A DNA stretch of 64,000 nucleotides from an uncultured Mycoplasmatota bacterium (lineage in GTDB: Bacteria; Bacillota_I; Bacilli_A; RF39; UBA660). Within the stretch, counting starts at the first letter, position 1. Every line of letters starts with the position of its first letter. The notes beneath the pieces were generated by a model. The model was not told where the DNA came from, ran no database searches, and saw only the letters and a list, made by a program, of their open reading frames with translations. Positions 1,640 through 53,441 of the stretch are shown here, piece by piece. The translations under genes and the position numbers were made by a program. Where the stretch lies: positions 17,310 through 81,309 of the forward strand of contig CANEDJ010000001.1 of the NCBI GenBank assembly GCA_947426265.1, read 5' to 3'.

Positions 1640-2339
1640 TTATGTATTGGGTTATGAAAATTTAAAGATTATTCAAGATAGTGATAGTTTTCGATTTTCA
1701 ATTGATTCAATATTATTACCAAACTTTGTAACCATAAATAAAAATGTAAAAAAAATATTAGATATAGGAACAGGAAATGCACCAATCCCTCTTATTTTAT
1801 CGACAAAAACAGAAGCACAGATAATTGGAATAGAAATTCAAAAGAAGAGTGCTGAACTAGCTAGGAAATCAGTAGTATTAAATAATTTGGAAAATCAAAT
1901 TCAAATTATAGAGGATGATATTAGAAGTTATTCATTTGAAACAGACCAATATGATGTGATTACTTGTAATCCCCCTTTTTTTAAAGTATGCGAAAATTCT
2001 CATTTTAATGAAAAAGATGAGAAAACAATAGCACGTCATGAAGTAACATTAACTTTAGAAGATGTTTTAAGAGTAGCTCGAAAGTTATTAAAAAATGGTG
2101 GCGTTATCGCTTTGGTTCATAGACCTGAACGCTTGGTTGATATTTTAGTAGAAATGAGAAAGAATAATATTGAACCTAAAAAAATTCAATATGTATATCC
2201 AAATGCAAAAGAAAGTAGTCACATCCTATTAATAGAAGGAAAAAAGAATGGTAATTCTGGATTGAAAATTCTTCCCCCTTTATATGTACACCATAAAGAT
2301 GGAAGCTATACAGAAGAAGTAATGAAGTATTTTTCATAA
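1626..2339 (+). CDS. YabB-like SAM-dependent methyltransferase (tRNA adenine-N6 methyltransferase family)
   Basis: DIGTGNA SAM-binding motif and NPPF catalytic motif. Overlaps ricT 3' end by 14 nt. Confidence 0.6.
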   Translation: MEIINYVLGYENLKIIQDSDSFRFSIDSILLPNFVTINKNVKKILDIGTGNAPIPLILSTKTEAQIIGIEIQKKSAELARKSVVLNNLENQIQIIEDDIRSYSFETDQYDVITCNPPFFKVCENSHFNEKDEKTIARHEVTLTLEDVLRVARKLLKNGGVIALVHRPERLVDILVEMRKNNIEPKKIQYVYPNAKESSHILLIEGKKNGNSGLKILPPLYVHHKDGSYTEEVMKYFS

Positions 2340-2353
2340 GTGAGGTGAGAAAA

Positions 2354-3205
2354 ATGTCACAGAAAAGTTATGATAATAGTCCAACCTTATATTTGATTCC
2401 AACTCCTATTGGGAACATGGACGATATTACACTTAGAACGATTAAAATATTACAGTTTGTAGATGTTATATTTTCAGAAGATACAAGAGTAACAGGACAA
2501 TTATTAAAAAGTTTAAATATAAAAAAGCCTTTAATCGCAAATCATGAACATAATGAAAGACAAAATAGTGAGAAGTTAATACAATTTTTAAAAGAAGGAA
2601 AAAATGTTGGACTAGCGAGTGATAGAGGAACTCCTATTATTAGTGACCCTGGATATGCTTTATCAAAAATAGCAATAGAAGCAGGATATAATGTAGTATC
2701 TCTTCCAGGAGCAACAGCTCTTATTCCAGCCCTCACTTCATCTGGGATAGAACCAAATCCATTTTTGTTTTATGGATTTTTAAGCAGTAAAGAAAGTAAA
2801 AGAAAAAAAGAACTCGAAAATTTAAAAGATTTTCCTTATACATTGATTTTTTATGAAGCACCACATCGAATAAAAGATACTCTTCAAAATATATCTCATA
2901 TTTTTGGAGAACGAAATATCAGCATTTCAAGAGAAATAACAAAAAAATTTGAAGAAGTTTATCGTGGAACGATTAGTGAGGTGTTACTAGAAATAGAAGA
3001 TGCCAAAGGAGAAATGGTATTAGTAGTTACTGGAAATCATGATGAAAAAAATTATGATTCTTTATCTATTATAGACCATGTTAATATTTATTTAACACAA
3101 GGTTATAATACAAAAGAAGCAATAAAAAAAGTAGCGAAAGATAGAAATGTAAAAACGAGTGAAATATATAATGAGTATCATGGGATAAAGCAGGTGGACT
3201 TATGA
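2354..3205 (+). CDS. rsmI: 16S rRNA (cytidine1402-2'-O)-methyltransferase RsmI
   Basis: LYLIPTPIGN and FSEDTR motifs of the tetrapyrrole-methylase-fold RsmI family. ATG at 2354 follows GAGGTGAG. Confidence 0.8.
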   Translation: MSQKSYDNSPTLYLIPTPIGNMDDITLRTIKILQFVDVIFSEDTRVTGQLLKSLNIKKPLIANHEHNERQNSEKLIQFLKEGKNVGLASDRGTPIISDPGYALSKIAIEAGYNVVSLPGATALIPALTSSGIEPNPFLFYGFLSSKESKRKKELENLKDFPYTLIFYEAPHRIKDTLQNISHIFGERNISISREITKKFEEVYRGTISEVLLEIEDAKGEMVLVVTGNHDEKNYDSLSIIDHVNIYLTQGYNTKEAIKKVAKDRNVKTSEIYNEYHGIKQVDL

Positions 3206-3762
3206 AAATGATAGTAGGATTAGGAAATCCAGGAAAAGAATATGAAAATACACGACACAATGTTGGCTTTATGGCAATTGATAAAATTGCTTTAAAAAAT
3301 CATGTTACCTTGAACTCAAAAAAAGGAAATGGGATTTATACAATTTTTGAAAAAGAAGATGAAAAAATATTATTATTAAAACCGCTTACCTATATGAACC
3401 TATCTGGGGAAGCTGTGAAAGCATTGATGCAATATTATAAAATAGCAGTATCAGATATATTAATCATCAGTGATGATTTAGATATGCCAACTGGGAAAAT
3501 TAAGTTGAAATATAAAGGAAGCTCAGGGGGCCATAATGGACTAAAAAACATAGAACAACATTTAAAAACACAAGAATATAAAAGACTAAAAATAGGAATT
3601 TCAAATAATAAAAATTATGATACAAAAGATTATGTATTAGGAAGATTTTCAATAGAAGAAAAGGAAAAAATAGATAGTGTACTAAATACAGTAATTGATA
3701 TTTTTGACGATTTCTGTATAAATTCTTTTGAAAACGTCATGAATAAATATAATAAAAAATAG
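3202..3762 (+). CDS. pth: peptidyl-tRNA hydrolase
   Basis: MIVGLGNPG...YENTRHNVGF N-terminus. 4-nt overlap with rsmI stop. Confidence 0.9.
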   Translation: MKMIVGLGNPGKEYENTRHNVGFMAIDKIALKNHVTLNSKKGNGIYTIFEKEDEKILLLKPLTYMNLSGEAVKALMQYYKIAVSDILIISDDLDMPTGKIKLKYKGSSGGHNGLKNIEQHLKTQEYKRLKIGISNNKNYDTKDYVLGRFSIEEKEKIDSVLNTVIDIFDDFCINSFENVMNKYNKK

Positions 3763-7221: not shown

Positions 7222-7752
7222 ATGAAAAAACTACTACAAATGGGATTGTGCTGTTTATGCTGTGTTGGATTTTTATGTGGATGTGATAGTAATGACACTG
7301 ATACAAAAAATCCTGGTAAAGACAATAACCAAGAAACGGAGAATAAGGATAAAGAAAAAGAAAAATACGCCTTGGGAAAAGCTTTTAAGTTTGATGATTT
7401 AGAAATTACAATTGGAAGCGAATTTACATATGCAATTGTTGACAATAAATATTCTGACCATCATCAAAAAGAAGTTATTAAAATTCCTGTAACTGTGAAA
7501 AATTTATCAGAAGAAACTCATGGATTAAATATGTTTTACTATGATTTTTATGGTTCTAAGGGAACTGAGCTAGATTCAGTATCTGCTTATTTCTCAGAAG
7601 ATAGTGTAGATTTTGCTGGAGATTTAAGAACAGACGCATCATATACAAAGTATTTCTATGTATTATATGATGGAGATGGAACATATACAATTGAATTTAA
7701 TGATTTTAGTGAAAAAATCAGTATTGATTTTGAAGTAAAAAAAGCACAATAA
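7222..7752 (+). CDS. lipoprotein, DUF4352-like
   Basis: Signal peptide with lipobox LCGC. Asp/Lys-rich linker and a beta-rich C-terminal domain. Confidence 0.5.
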   Translation: MKKLLQMGLCCLCCVGFLCGCDSNDTDTKNPGKDNNQETENKDKEKEKYALGKAFKFDDLEITIGSEFTYAIVDNKYSDHHQKEVIKIPVTVKNLSEETHGLNMFYYDFYGSKGTELDSVSAYFSEDSVDFAGDLRTDASYTKYFYVLYDGDGTYTIEFNDFSEKISIDFEVKKAQ

Positions 7753-9506: not shown

Positions 9507-10034
9507 ATGAAAGCAACTGGTGTTGTAAGAAGAATTGATGAATTAGGTAGAATTGTGATACCAAAAGAGATCAGGAAAACATTACGTATTAAAGAGGGTG
9601 AAAATCTAGAAATTTATATAGATAATGAATCCATTATATTAAAAAAATATTCTTCTATTCATAGTTTAGATGAATTTGCCCAAAAACTAACAGATACAAT
9701 TTCTAATTTACTAAAGAAAAATATAATAATTACAGATAGTGATAGTATAGTCGCTATATCAGGAGAACTGAAAAAGAAATATTTGGGACAGAAAATAAGT
9801 GATGAATTAGAAACGATAATAAAGAAAAGAAGTCAAATATTGGAAAAAAACATAAAATCAATTAAAATATCGGAAATAGAAGAAACTGGGAGTTATACAT
9901 ATGCCCCTATTATAGCAAATGGAGATGCCTTAGGGATTGTACTCATATTATCAAAAACAGAAACGTTGTCTGAAGCAGAAGAACAAATAGTTAAAATAGT
10001 TGCTAATTTTCTAGCGAAACATCTTGAACAATAA
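9507..10034 (+). CDS. spoVT: SpoVT/AbrB-family transcriptional regulator (AbrB-N swapped-hairpin plus GAF-like C-terminal domain)
   Basis: MKATGVVRRIDELGRIVIPKEIRKTL N-terminus. 176 aa matches SpoVT rather than the 94-aa AbrB. Confidence 0.65.
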   Translation: MKATGVVRRIDELGRIVIPKEIRKTLRIKEGENLEIYIDNESIILKKYSSIHSLDEFAQKLTDTISNLLKKNIIITDSDSIVAISGELKKKYLGQKISDELETIIKKRSQILEKNIKSIKISEIEETGSYTYAPIIANGDALGIVLILSKTETLSEAEEQIVKIVANFLAKHLEQ

Positions 10035-10065
10035 TAGAAAACATGATATAATGACCTCGTTTTAA

Positions 10066-10307
10066 AAACTTTGAAAGAGAGAATACTAGCAATTATTCAA
10101 AGAGAACTTACATTTGGTGAAAGTAGGTAATAGGAACTAGTACGAATGGCTCTGGAGTTGTTTATCTGAATTTTTTAGGATAAACCGCGATTTGCGTTAC
10201 AAAAGCAAGGTAAAATAAGTATGTGTAGTTCTTACAAGAAAAGCTTATTTTATAAAAAAAGGTGGTACCACGTTATCCCACGTCCTTTTATTTGGACGTG
10301 TTTTTTT
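10066..10307 (+). ncRNA. T-box leader (probable Met specifier) with intrinsic terminator/antiterminator
   Basis: AGAGAGA and AGTA stem I elements. Candidate AUG-G specifier at 10146-10149. T-box sequence aaaaaaGGTGGTACCACG at 10255-10272. Terminator cacgtcc/ggacgtg plus T7 at 10279-10307. Confidence 0.6.
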
Positions 10308-10363
10308 CTTTTTTGAAAGATTTTTAAGACGAATTTCGTATAATAAAAGTGGAGGTATGATGA

Positions 10364-10855
10364 ATGGCAAGATATTTTGAAAAAATTAGTTGGGAACAAT
10401 GGAAAAAAGATATCGGGAATAATAGAGAAGTTTACGAGAATCATGAGCTTCCAAAACGTCAAACAAAATTTAGCGCAGGCTATGATTTTAAAAGTCCTAT
10501 TGATGTTATTTTACATCCAGGCGATGTAAAGAAAATTCCAACAGGTGTAAAAATAGCGATGAATGAAGATGAAATGCTAATGCTTGTTGTAAGAGGTTCG
10601 GTAGGATTTAAATACAATGTGCGAATGACGAATCAAGTTGGAATATTTGAAAGTGATTATTTTAATAATATATCTAATGAAGGACATGCATGGATCAGTC
10701 TTCAAAATCATAGCAATGAAGATTTTATAATAAAAGTGGGAGATCGAATTGGACAAGGAATTTTTACAAAATTTTTGATGGTTGATAACGAAGAAGCGAT
10801 AGAAACGGAAAGACAAGGTGGATTTGGTAGTACCAATAAGGAGGAAAGAAAATGA
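10364..10855 (+). CDS. dut: dUTP diphosphatase (trimeric dUTPase)
   Basis: All five dUTPase motifs are present: SAGYDF, RGSVG, GIFESDY, DRIGQGIF, RQGGFGSTNK. GGAGG RBS. Confidence 0.8.
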   Translation: MARYFEKISWEQWKKDIGNNREVYENHELPKRQTKFSAGYDFKSPIDVILHPGDVKKIPTGVKIAMNEDEMLMLVVRGSVGFKYNVRMTNQVGIFESDYFNNISNEGHAWISLQNHSNEDFIIKVGDRIGQGIFTKFLMVDNEEAIETERQGGFGSTNKEERK

Positions 10856-12429
10856 AAGAAAAATTTTATATATCAACGGCAATTGCTTATACATCAGGAA
10901 AACCCCATATAGGAAATACTTATGAGATTGTGTTAGCAGATGCGATCGCACGCTTTAAAAGATTAATGGGATATGATGTTTATTTCCAAACTGGAACAGA
11001 TGAACATGGTGAAAAAATAGAAATAAAAGCCAAAGAAGCAGGAAAAAAACCTCAGGAATTTGTTGATGAAATTGCACTTGAAGTACGCAGAATTTGGGAT
11101 GTTATGAATACTAGTTATGATTGTTTTATGAGAACAACCAACCCAACGCACGAAGAGTGTGTAAAAAAAATCTTTAAACGTCTTTATGAACAGGGTGATA
11201 TTTATAAAGATGAATATGAAGGACTATACTGTACACCTTGTGAATCATTTTTTACTGAAACGCAGTTGATAGATGGAAAATGTCCAGATTGTGGAAGAGA
11301 TGTTCATAAAATGAAAGAGGAAGCTTATTTCTTGAAATTAAGCAAATATAGTAAACAATTGGAAGAATATATAGAAACCCATCCACATTTCATTGAACCA
11401 GAAAGCCGAAAAAATGAAATGATCAATAACTTTATTAAACCAGGTTTACAGGATTTATGTGTTTCTAGAACGTCGTTTACATGGGGAGTTCCAGTAGAAT
11501 TTGACCCAGGGCATATTGTGTATGTTTGGATAGATGCATTAAGTAATTATATTACTATGTTAGGATATAATCCAGAAGGGGAAAGCAGTGAGCGTTTTCA
11601 TAAATATTGGCCAGCAGATTTGCATTTAATTGGAAAGGACATTTTAAGATTTCATACAATTTATTGGCCTATTATTTTAATGGCTTTAGATTTACCACTT
11701 CCACATCAAGTATTTGGTCATCCTTGGTTACTTTGCGGAAATGATAAAATGAGCAAATCAAAAGGAAATATTATTTATGCTGATGATTTGGTTAGTCTAT
11801 TTGGAACAGATGCAGTTAGATATTATTTGTTGCACGAAATCCCATTTGCAAGTGATGGAACATTTACTTATGAACTATTAATTGAAAGAATTAATTCTGA
11901 TTTGGCAAATATTTTGGGAAATCTAGTAAATCGTACTATTTCAATGTCTAAGAAATATTTTGATGGAATGGTAAAAGAACCAGTAGCACCAGAAGCAATA
12001 GATCAAGAATTAATAAATATTGTAAGTAATGCTCCAAAAAGAGTAGAAGAAAAAATGAATGAATATCGTGTAGCAGACGCAATTGATGAAGTATTTGAAA
12101 TTTTTAGAAGAAGTAATAAATATATAGATGAAACAATGCCATGGGCACTTGCAAAAGATTCAGAGAAACAGAGTCGCTTAGCAACAGTACTTTATAACTT
12201 ATTGGAAGCCATTCGTTCTGGAGCCGTATTGTTACAAGCTTTCTTACCAGAAACAGCAGATGCAATATTCAAACAATTAAATACAGAAAATCGATTTATA
12301 GAATCCTTAAAAGAATTTAATGGTTTAGATGTTGGAATTAAGCTGAATGAGCCTTCCCCTTTATTTGCACGTATTGATAAAGATAAAAAATTGTTAGAAA
12401 TAGAAGAATATAATAGAAATAAGATGTAA
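10852..12429 (+). CDS. metG: methionine--tRNA ligase (short form without C-terminal tRNA-binding domain)
   Basis: HIGN (HIGH) motif, KMSKS motif and a zinc knuckle CTPC...CPDC. 4-nt overlap with dut. Confidence 0.9.
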   Translation: MKEKFYISTAIAYTSGKPHIGNTYEIVLADAIARFKRLMGYDVYFQTGTDEHGEKIEIKAKEAGKKPQEFVDEIALEVRRIWDVMNTSYDCFMRTTNPTHEECVKKIFKRLYEQGDIYKDEYEGLYCTPCESFFTETQLIDGKCPDCGRDVHKMKEEAYFLKLSKYSKQLEEYIETHPHFIEPESRKNEMINNFIKPGLQDLCVSRTSFTWGVPVEFDPGHIVYVWIDALSNYITMLGYNPEGESSERFHKYWPADLHLIGKDILRFHTIYWPIILMALDLPLPHQVFGHPWLLCGNDKMSKSKGNIIYADDLVSLFGTDAVRYYLLHEIPFASDGTFTYELLIERINSDLANILGNLVNRTISMSKKYFDGMVKEPVAPEAIDQELINIVSNAPKRVEEKMNEYRVADAIDEVFEIFRRSNKYIDETMPWALAKDSEKQSRLATVLYNLLEAIRSGAVLLQAFLPETADAIFKQLNTENRFIESLKEFNGLDVGIKLNEPSPLFARIDKDKKLLEIEEYNRNKM

Positions 12430-12530: not shown

Positions 12531-12698
12531 ATGACTACTAAGAATAAAGATATGAAGTGGGTTGTATTAGGTTTCATCGCTGTTTCATTGTTAGTTTTTG
12601 GTAGTATTGTAGTAGAGAAAAATATAGTAGACATGATTTACTTAACTTGTGTTTTAGTATATTTTGTCCGTTATATTTTTATAAAAGTGAGAAGTTGA
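12531..12698 (+). CDS. small hydrophobic protein (55 aa, single TM), not in the ORF track
   Basis: ATG preceded by AGGGAGAAAAT. Hydrophobic core VVLGFIAVSLLVFGSIVV. Fills the metG-tatD gap. Confidence 0.35.
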   Translation: MTTKNKDMKWVVLGFIAVSLLVFGSIVVEKNIVDMIYLTCVLVYFVRYIFIKVRS

Positions 12699-12738
12699 AA
12701 ATCATATCGATTAATGGTATGATTTTTTTGGTGATAAT

Positions 12739-53367: not shown

Positions 53368-53441
53368 AGGGGTATAGTTCAATGGTAGAATAACGGTCTC
53401 CAAAACCGCTGATGTGGGTTCAACTCCTGCTACCCCTGCCA
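53368..53441 (+). tRNA. trnW: tRNA-Trp (anticodon CCA), CCA 3' end encoded
   Basis: Folded by hand into a cloverleaf. Acceptor AGGGGTA/TACCCCT, D-arm GTTC-AATGGTA-GAAT, anticodon loop CTCCAAA, T-arm GTGGG-TTCAACT-CCTGC, discriminator G. Confidence 0.75.

Follow-up and report, generated by a model that had tools for sequence, protein, structure and literature searches.

The 64,000-nucleotide stretch of contig CANEDJ010000001.1 analysed here (the window, from an uncultured Mycoplasmatota bacterium) contains a T-box leader RNA upstream of dut, a gene for a dUTPase-family protein, which in turn overlaps metG, the gene for methionyl-tRNA synthetase (MetRS). This arrangement raises the question of which of the two genes the switch belongs to, and whether dut lies under tRNA-Met sensing for a functional reason or through its position. 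We consider it likely that a standard attenuating methionine (Met) T-box drives a dut-metG operon, with the switch having historically been that of metG and dut being regulated by position. The features on which this reading is built are as follows.

10024-10052, forward strand: leader promoter of the sigma-70 type, TTGAAC, 17 nt and an extended -10 element TG-n-TATAAT (promoter scan, 10 of 12 matches, TG present)
10062-10290, forward strand: T-box leader with Stem I, Stem II, a IIA/B region with CGUUA, an enlarged Stem III and the antiterminator (Rfam RF00230)
10146-10148, forward strand: AUG specifier (Met) within the specifier loop of Stem I; the next base is the purine G10149 (Rfam structural alignment)
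10263-10266, forward strand: T-box bulge 5'-UGGU-3', complementary to the tRNA 3' end 5'-ACCA-3' with discriminator A (read from the sequence)
10279-10307, forward strand: intrinsic terminator with a CACGUCC/GGACGUG stem, an 8-nt loop and a U7 tract (terminator scan, 7 pairs, 5 of them GC)
10339-10344, forward strand: lone TATAAT within the 56 nt that separate the terminator from dut (read from the sequence; not called by the promoter scan)
10364-10855, forward strand: dut, encoding a 163-amino-acid protein of the trimeric dUTPase family, of the Streptococcus mutans 3H6X type (Pfam PF00692)
10838-10844, forward strand: metG ribosome-binding site AAGGAGG, inside codons of the Dut C-terminal tail (K-E-E) (read from the sequence)
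10852-12429, forward strand: metG, encoding a 525-amino-acid MetRS (NF008900, TIGR00398 and Pfam)

The first-pass annotation, made by reading the letters, had proposed a T-box riboswitch with a T-box sequence, a terminator and an AUG specifier, and had named an Rfam scan and a structural alignment as checks. All of these elements held up. The leader matched RF00230 on the forward strand at 112.5 bits, above the gathering score of 93 (E-value 4.5e-24), and the match covered model positions 1-219 of 219. The structural alignment placed AUG followed by G at the specifier-loop position. In an alignment of 24 leaders, the specifier columns A85, T86 and G87 were invariant while the flanking bases varied, the sequences around the codon including cGAAUGG, gAAAUGG, AAAAUGA, GAGUAUGG, GAAGAUGG and AUAGAUGG. 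Two other readings of the specifier around 10145-10149 were ruled out: UGG (Trp) becomes UGA in the related loci L009 and L011, and AAU (Asn) is not conserved, leaving AUG as the only invariant triplet. The UGGU bulge sits in the conserved core AAGGUGGUACCACG, which was invariant in the leader alignment, and the 7-nt bulge is bordered by two helices that covary or are invariant according to RNAalifold. The AGAGA, GGUGNAA, CGUUA and AAGGUGGUA.C.CG motifs were invariant or nearly so among the 24 leaders; in Stem I, the same was true, at the level of sequence and covariation, of the columns for TGA (the GA motif of the K-turn), AGAGA (the S-turn) and GGTG.AA (the distal loop). RNAalifold recovered the distal Stem I helix and the antiterminator from these leaders, with double compensatory changes in 7 of 14 pairs and, in the distal Stem I helix, 9-12 such changes per pair.

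The terminator hairpin itself spans 10279-10300, is followed by T7 and has a predicted free energy of -11.5 kcal/mol. Its 5' arm, CACGUCC, doubles as the 3' strand of the antiterminator, and the two structures are therefore mutually exclusive. An equivalent hairpin with a T-run was found in most related leaders, with differing stem sequences. As an RNA, the leader is an unexceptional T-box, and its mechanism is not new. Compared with the lineage's other leaders, those of the window clade (the window and L001-L004) and of L006 have ~25-30 additional nt inserted in Stem III (window 10220-10250; alignment columns 166-190).

A leader of this kind would work as follows. Transcription would begin at the promoter at 10024-10052. 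With tRNA-Met mostly charged, the terminator at 10279-10307 would form and transcription would halt before dut. Uncharged tRNA-Met would pair through its CAU anticodon with the AUG specifier in Stem I and through its free ACCA end with the UGGU bulge, and this pairing would stabilise the antiterminator so that RNA polymerase reads into dut and then into metG. Translation of metG would be coupled to that of dut through the overlap of the two genes and the ribosome-binding site lying within dut.

The start codon of metG overlaps the stop codon of dut by 4 nt (ATGA), as had been read in the first-pass annotation. At every locus compared, the two genes either overlap or lie <=12 nt apart, and the junction is conserved in 30 other loci. 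The terminator scan detected no terminator between dut and metG, and the promoter scan detected no forward-strand promoter-like site in 10053-11093, hence none in dut (10364-10852), which was the search for an internal metG promoter that the first-pass annotation had called for. An internal metG promoter and a terminator after dut were accordingly rejected at the sequence level, the scans finding neither and the 4-nt overlap being too tight. The two genes very likely form one operon under joint control, in which expression of each gene would rely on polymerase passing the shared terminator. We regard co-transcription and tRNA-dependent read-through as well-founded inferences.

The distribution of this layout was examined in two sets of related loci. 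Centred on dut, a scan of species-representative genomes yielded 21 loci; a metagenome scan centred on metG yielded 80 more, which were classified with an nhmmer profile (17 verified leaders) and tblastn. The order spoVT, T-box, dut, metG, tatD was found in the window and in 28 other loci. In the dut-centred set, metG followed dut in 16 of the 21 loci, and all 16 had a T-box 5' of dut, 12 of them at the Rfam gathering score and the other four at 82-90 bits (E <= 3e-16). T-box, dut and metG occurred together in 12 of the 80 metagenome loci by the nhmmer profile, and an Rfam recheck gave 128 bits for L022 and 101 bits for L044. Across the 29 loci with T-box, dut and metG, identity falls to ~56-60% for MetRS and to ~46-50% for Dut, which indicates that the arrangement is old.

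The same loci provide natural controls for the ownership of the switch. Where dut has no adjacent metG, no T-box was detected at E <= 0.01 in L014, L016, L017 and L019, and none at the gathering score in L021. A T-box lies immediately before metG in approximately 39 of the 80 metagenome loci, including L096 (spoVT, T-box, metG; 117 bits), and several lineages with this arrangement are nested among the dut-containing ones; approximately 24 of the 80 had no T-box by the nhmmer leader profile. Because the T-box is absent where dut lacks metG and present directly before metG without dut, we assign the switch to metG, and the natural controls point to a T-box that goes with metG and not with dut. 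The first-pass annotation had stated that the leader controls dUTPase together with MetRS. The sequence evidence agrees insofar as a Met T-box heads the bicistron, both genes lie behind the same terminator and 28 further loci share the layout.

Other genes also occupy the position between leader and metG. A FabG-like SDR gene follows dut in the T-box-metG slot of L010 (1726-2457), and a gene for a weak DHH-like protein follows dut in that of L011 (3064-4002). In L046 (2129-2995), dut is replaced by a gene for a HAD-IA hydrolase, whose similarity to YjjG-type pyrimidine nucleotidases is far below the cut-off. The genes are tightly packed at all three loci. We considered a shared functional theme among these passengers, and no firm one emerged from an SDR, a weak DHH-like protein and a HAD-IA hydrolase with sub-threshold nucleotidase similarity. 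Insertions seem to be readily accepted at the leader-metG junction. Most simply, dut would be one such passenger, and its dependence on tRNA-Met would be a by-product of its position.

The product of dut is probably a dUTPase. It matched the Pfam dUTPase family PF00692 at 60.2 bits against a cut-off of 22 and matched no other Pfam family; a GGAGG ribosome-binding site lies at 10351-10355, 8 nt upstream of the gene. Motifs I (SAGYD), II (RGS), IV (GDRIGQ) and V (RQGGFGST) are present, together with the sugar-gating Tyr of motif III. The nearest solved structure is the trimeric dUTPase of S. mutans (PDB 3H6X, E 2.5e-27), which has in common with the window Dut an NNxxNEGH insert after motif III as well as motifs I, II, IV and V. 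Unlike 3H6X, the window Dut has a 25-amino-acid N-terminal extension and a C-terminal tail encoding the metG ribosome-binding site. Furthermore, its motif III (window 10640-10660) reads GIFESDY, whereas that of 3H6X reads GVIDGDY, so that Glu stands at the position of the catalytic Asp, which we take to be D90 of the E. coli enzyme (numbering by our own count of the E. coli sequence). The first-pass annotation had called the gene a canonical dUTPase; this was an overstatement, given the Asp-to-Glu change and the failure to reach the cut-off of any of the three NCBIfam dUTPase models (125.7 against 223 for NF010561, 85.2 against 102.55 for TIGR00576 and 80.4 against 103 for NF001862).

Glu was found at this position in 118 of the 120 closest homologues, among which the Phe of motif V is mostly Leu or Ile, and the Asp is kept in sister-lineage orthologues (GVIDKDY). 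Among clear orthologues, the Asp and Glu forms are interleaved independently of linkage to metG. A tie between the Glu variant and linkage to the T-box or metG was rejected, as Glu occurs in dut copies without metG and Asp in T-box-linked copies. A literature search on Asp-to-Glu changes in dUTPase motif III found nothing relevant. The C-terminal tail (KEERK), which is encoded by the metG ribosome-binding region, is missing in dut copies without metG. A recent prophage origin of dut was also rejected, the best phage dUTPases being just 35-47% identical. Purifying selection on dut was found in every clade tested, with ratios of nonsynonymous to synonymous substitution rates (dN/dS) of 0.07-0.24, compared with 0.04-0.16 for metG; within the window clade, the values for dut were 0.10-0.18.

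In one sister clade (L033:2524-2982, L039:2520-2984 and L088:2525-2983), the T-box-linked Dut stops at ...RKSNY directly before the metG ribosome-binding site. Motif V (RxGGxGST) was present in no frame of these genes, and their dN/dS of 0.14-0.20 indicates purifying selection. A dUTPase without motif V and the C-terminal arm is expected to be strongly impaired catalytically. This clade is therefore puzzling, because the loss of motif V should impair catalysis and yet selection persists.

These variants bear on whether the dut product is a working dUTPase at all. It might have a changed substrate or a non-catalytic role, in which case the operon would have no link to dUTP sanitation. The scores below the NCBIfam cut-offs, the Glu in 118 of 120 homologues, the usual Leu or Ile in motif V and the selected orthologues of L033, L039 and L088 are what such a change would look like; however, Glu retains the carboxylate, the Asp and Glu forms are interleaved in orthologues, motifs I, II, IV and V and the sugar-gating Tyr are in place, the closest structure is a bona fide family member and no other family matches, and we regard the idea as unlikely. 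It is similarly doubtful that T-box control is only partial, with constitutive transcription coming from a secondary promoter at the TATAAT (10339-10344) or at a site in dut that escaped recognition. Spacers that could hold such a promoter were found only in the window clade, where 56-57 nt with TATAAT or TATTAT precede the dut ribosome-binding site, and in L013, where 84 nt contain TGATATAAT. However, the TATAAT of the window has neither a usable -35 element (TTGAAA lies 20 nt upstream) nor a TG motif, the promoter scan called nothing on the forward strand in the interval given above, and the five window-clade sequences are too similar for the conservation of TATAAT to be informative. In 23 of the 29 T-box/dut/metG loci, only 10-26 nt separate the end of the U-tract from the start of dut, and this gap therefore fits a ribosome-binding site and not a separate promoter. 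That the T-box is a decaying relic which regulates nothing is highly improbable: although its loss in L023, L024 and L025 implies that loss is tolerated in the lineage, the leader in the window exceeds the gathering score over the whole model, with every functional motif and the terminator intact, the specifier and the T-box core are invariant over deep divergence, and the helices carry compensatory changes.

The remaining rival is adaptive coupling, in which dUTPase under tRNA-Met sensing was itself selected, or Dut has a second role connected with MetRS. An argument from general biochemistry can be made for the former, as methionine regeneration and thymidylate synthesis draw on one folate one-carbon pool, and methionine limitation would forecast a rising dUTP/dTTP ratio. 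Retention of the layout at MetRS identities of ~56-60%, the tight translational coupling, the purifying selection on dut (even in the clade without motif V) and the sub-threshold similarity of the L046 HAD passenger to pyrimidine nucleotidases would all suit such coupling. However, the T-box was never found with dut alone, nested lineages have it directly before metG, and the SDR and weak DHH-like passengers have no pyrimidine link, while the HAD similarity is far below the cut-off. The history of the two genes is ambiguous in this respect. Pairwise distances of Dut and MetRS were nearly uncorrelated (Spearman 0.13, reached by 208 of 2000 permutations; Mantel p ~0.1), and the neighbor-joining trees of both proteins were star-like. 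Discordant trees would be expected if dut had been recruited to the slot, or replaced there, several times, but noise in the star-like tree of a 160-amino-acid protein can also explain them; the data are compatible with one insertion and co-inheritance, with replacement of either gene and with noise. We judge adaptive coupling improbable overall, and slightly more so in its specific form, in which selection keeps dut under the switch because uncharged tRNA-Met signals a lack of one-carbon units or folate and raises dUTP clearance in advance, or a Glu-variant Dut, which in one clade also lacks motif V, has acquired a non-catalytic role tied to MetRS. The functional logic suggested by the first-pass annotation, a tie between dUTP sanitation and tRNA-Met, thus finds no backing in the comparative data, in which the T-box follows metG and the slot holds other passengers.

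We therefore prefer the reading of a metG switch with dut as its positional cargo, and several points weigh against it. The spacer TATAAT of the window clade could possibly act as a weak secondary promoter and give some T-box-independent expression. Co-transcription and read-through are deduced from the sequence. The dut-metG pair persists without a T-box in L023 and L024, and is thus not strictly dependent on the switch. The lack of correlation between Dut and MetRS distances does not bear out one insertion with strict co-inheritance thereafter. Finally, the layout is kept through deep divergence with dut under purifying selection, which is compatible with selected coupling, although it is not evidence for it.

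Hairpins were also seen at loci lacking the T-box. L023 (2420-2522) and L024 have a promoter and a 7-bp hairpin (TCACATC/GATGTGA) with T8 left directly before dut-metG, and an upstream CAATGGATG could pair with the 5' arm of this hairpin, which may be a remnant or a minimal attenuator. L016, L017 and L019 have the order spoVT, dut, tatD without T-box or metG, with ~108 nt between spoVT and dut, and a weak hairpin with T7 lies just 5' of the dut ribosome-binding site (L016, 3893-4000 and 4472-4766; also L017 and L019). From this gene order, metG must lie elsewhere in their genomes.

To place the operon among known T-box systems, we consulted the RegPrecise T-box regulon tables, which cover 93 genomes. 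The synthetase gene metS is listed as a T-box target in 20 entries, in agreement with the statement of the first-pass annotation that T-box control of metG is established, and dut has 0 entries. The TBDB paper makes no mention of dut, and full-text literature searches for T-box with dUTPase, or for dUTPase in an operon with methionyl-tRNA synthetase, returned nothing relevant. As cargo of a T-box, dut is thus unusual, as the first-pass annotation had also noted, previously unlisted and, as far as we searched, new. The metS (metG) leaders of Bacillus and other Firmicutes resemble the one described here in belonging to RF00230, in their Met specifier, in their transcription-termination platform and in serving the same synthetase. 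They differ in that the RegPrecise metS leader is listed with metS alone, whereas here a 163-amino-acid dUTPase-family gene lies between leader and metG and overlaps metG. The T-box operons cysE-cysS, X-cysES and hisS-aspS likewise have one leader for several genes, with a synthetase gene among them or at the end, and in X-cysES an unassigned gene stands first, just as a gene other than a synthetase stands first here. However, the partner genes in cysES and hisS-aspS belong to amino-acid or tRNA metabolism, whereas the partner here encodes a nucleotide-pool enzyme. The met leader of Staphylococcus aureus (metICFE-mdh) is a Met-specific T-box that acts by antitermination (PMC3771891); it controls methionine biosynthesis genes and is reported to be specific for the initiator tRNA. 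Its Met specificity is shared by the window leader, in which the species of tRNA-Met sensed is not readable from the sequence.

The product of metG matched NF008900 at 765.7 bits against a cut-off of 598 and TIGR00398 at 552.5 bits against 336, with Pfam matches to tRNA-synt_1g and Anticodon_3. It is a short form of MetRS that covers positions 3-523 of the 648 of NF008900 and is missing the C-terminal appended domain. In L026 (11-3711), a T-box 3' fragment at the contig edge is followed by a gene 28% identical to MetRS (200-1807) and then by a 71%-identical metG (2134-3711), a possible case of one leader serving two class I synthetase genes in tandem.

Around the leader, the genes run in the order ppaC-like (reverse strand), spoVT-like regulator, leader, dut, metG, tatD, yabE-like and ksgA-like, which matches the neighbourhood in B. 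subtilis (AbrB/SpoVT-type regulator, metS, tatD/yabD, yabE, ksgA). The closest public contigs are gut metagenome-assembled genomes (MAGs) labelled uncultured Bacilli or Tenericutes, and the proteins of L001 are 96-99% identical to those of the window. The -35 element of the leader promoter overlaps the final codons of the spoVT-like gene, and the arrangement TTGAAG/TTGAAC ... TGnTATAAT was also found 5' of leaders in related loci. The SpoVT-like regulator (window 9507-10034) has an AbrB-type N-terminus and SpoVT_C and scored 186.8 bits with TIGR02851, below the cut-off of 235.9; it was found in MAGs labelled Tenericutes/Bacilli, whose genomes are probably non-sporulating and reduced. Between metG and tatD lies an open reading frame for a 55-amino-acid hydrophobic protein (window 12531-12698) with no Pfam match. 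Ahead of tatD is a promoter-like site (12695-12723); downstream of metG, no terminator was detected. The sole tRNA detected in the window has the anticodon CCA (53368-53438). In L022, an Rfam RAGATH-18 match (7458-7526, reverse strand; 58.8 bits, gathering score 44.9) lies downstream of the yabE-like gene.

T-box regulons are usually described as consisting of synthetases, amino-acid biosynthesis genes and transporters. Were the coupling selected, the T-box regulon would reach past amino-acid metabolism into DNA-precursor quality control, and tRNA charging would be linked to DNA-precursor sanitation; the comparative evidence speaks for a by-product. Small, testable enzymological questions are posed by the Dut variants with Glu for Asp or without motif V, and the locus is a warning to annotation pipelines in which T-box specificity or the function of a gene is deduced from whichever gene comes first downstream. 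A dUTPase-family gene that entered the leader-metG slot of uncultured gut Bacilli would have inherited tRNA-Met-dependent expression as a by-product of its position. As the lineage-wide first cistron of a Met T-box operon, it suggests that an unrelated housekeeping function can be drawn into an amino-acid-sensing circuit simply by where its gene lies.

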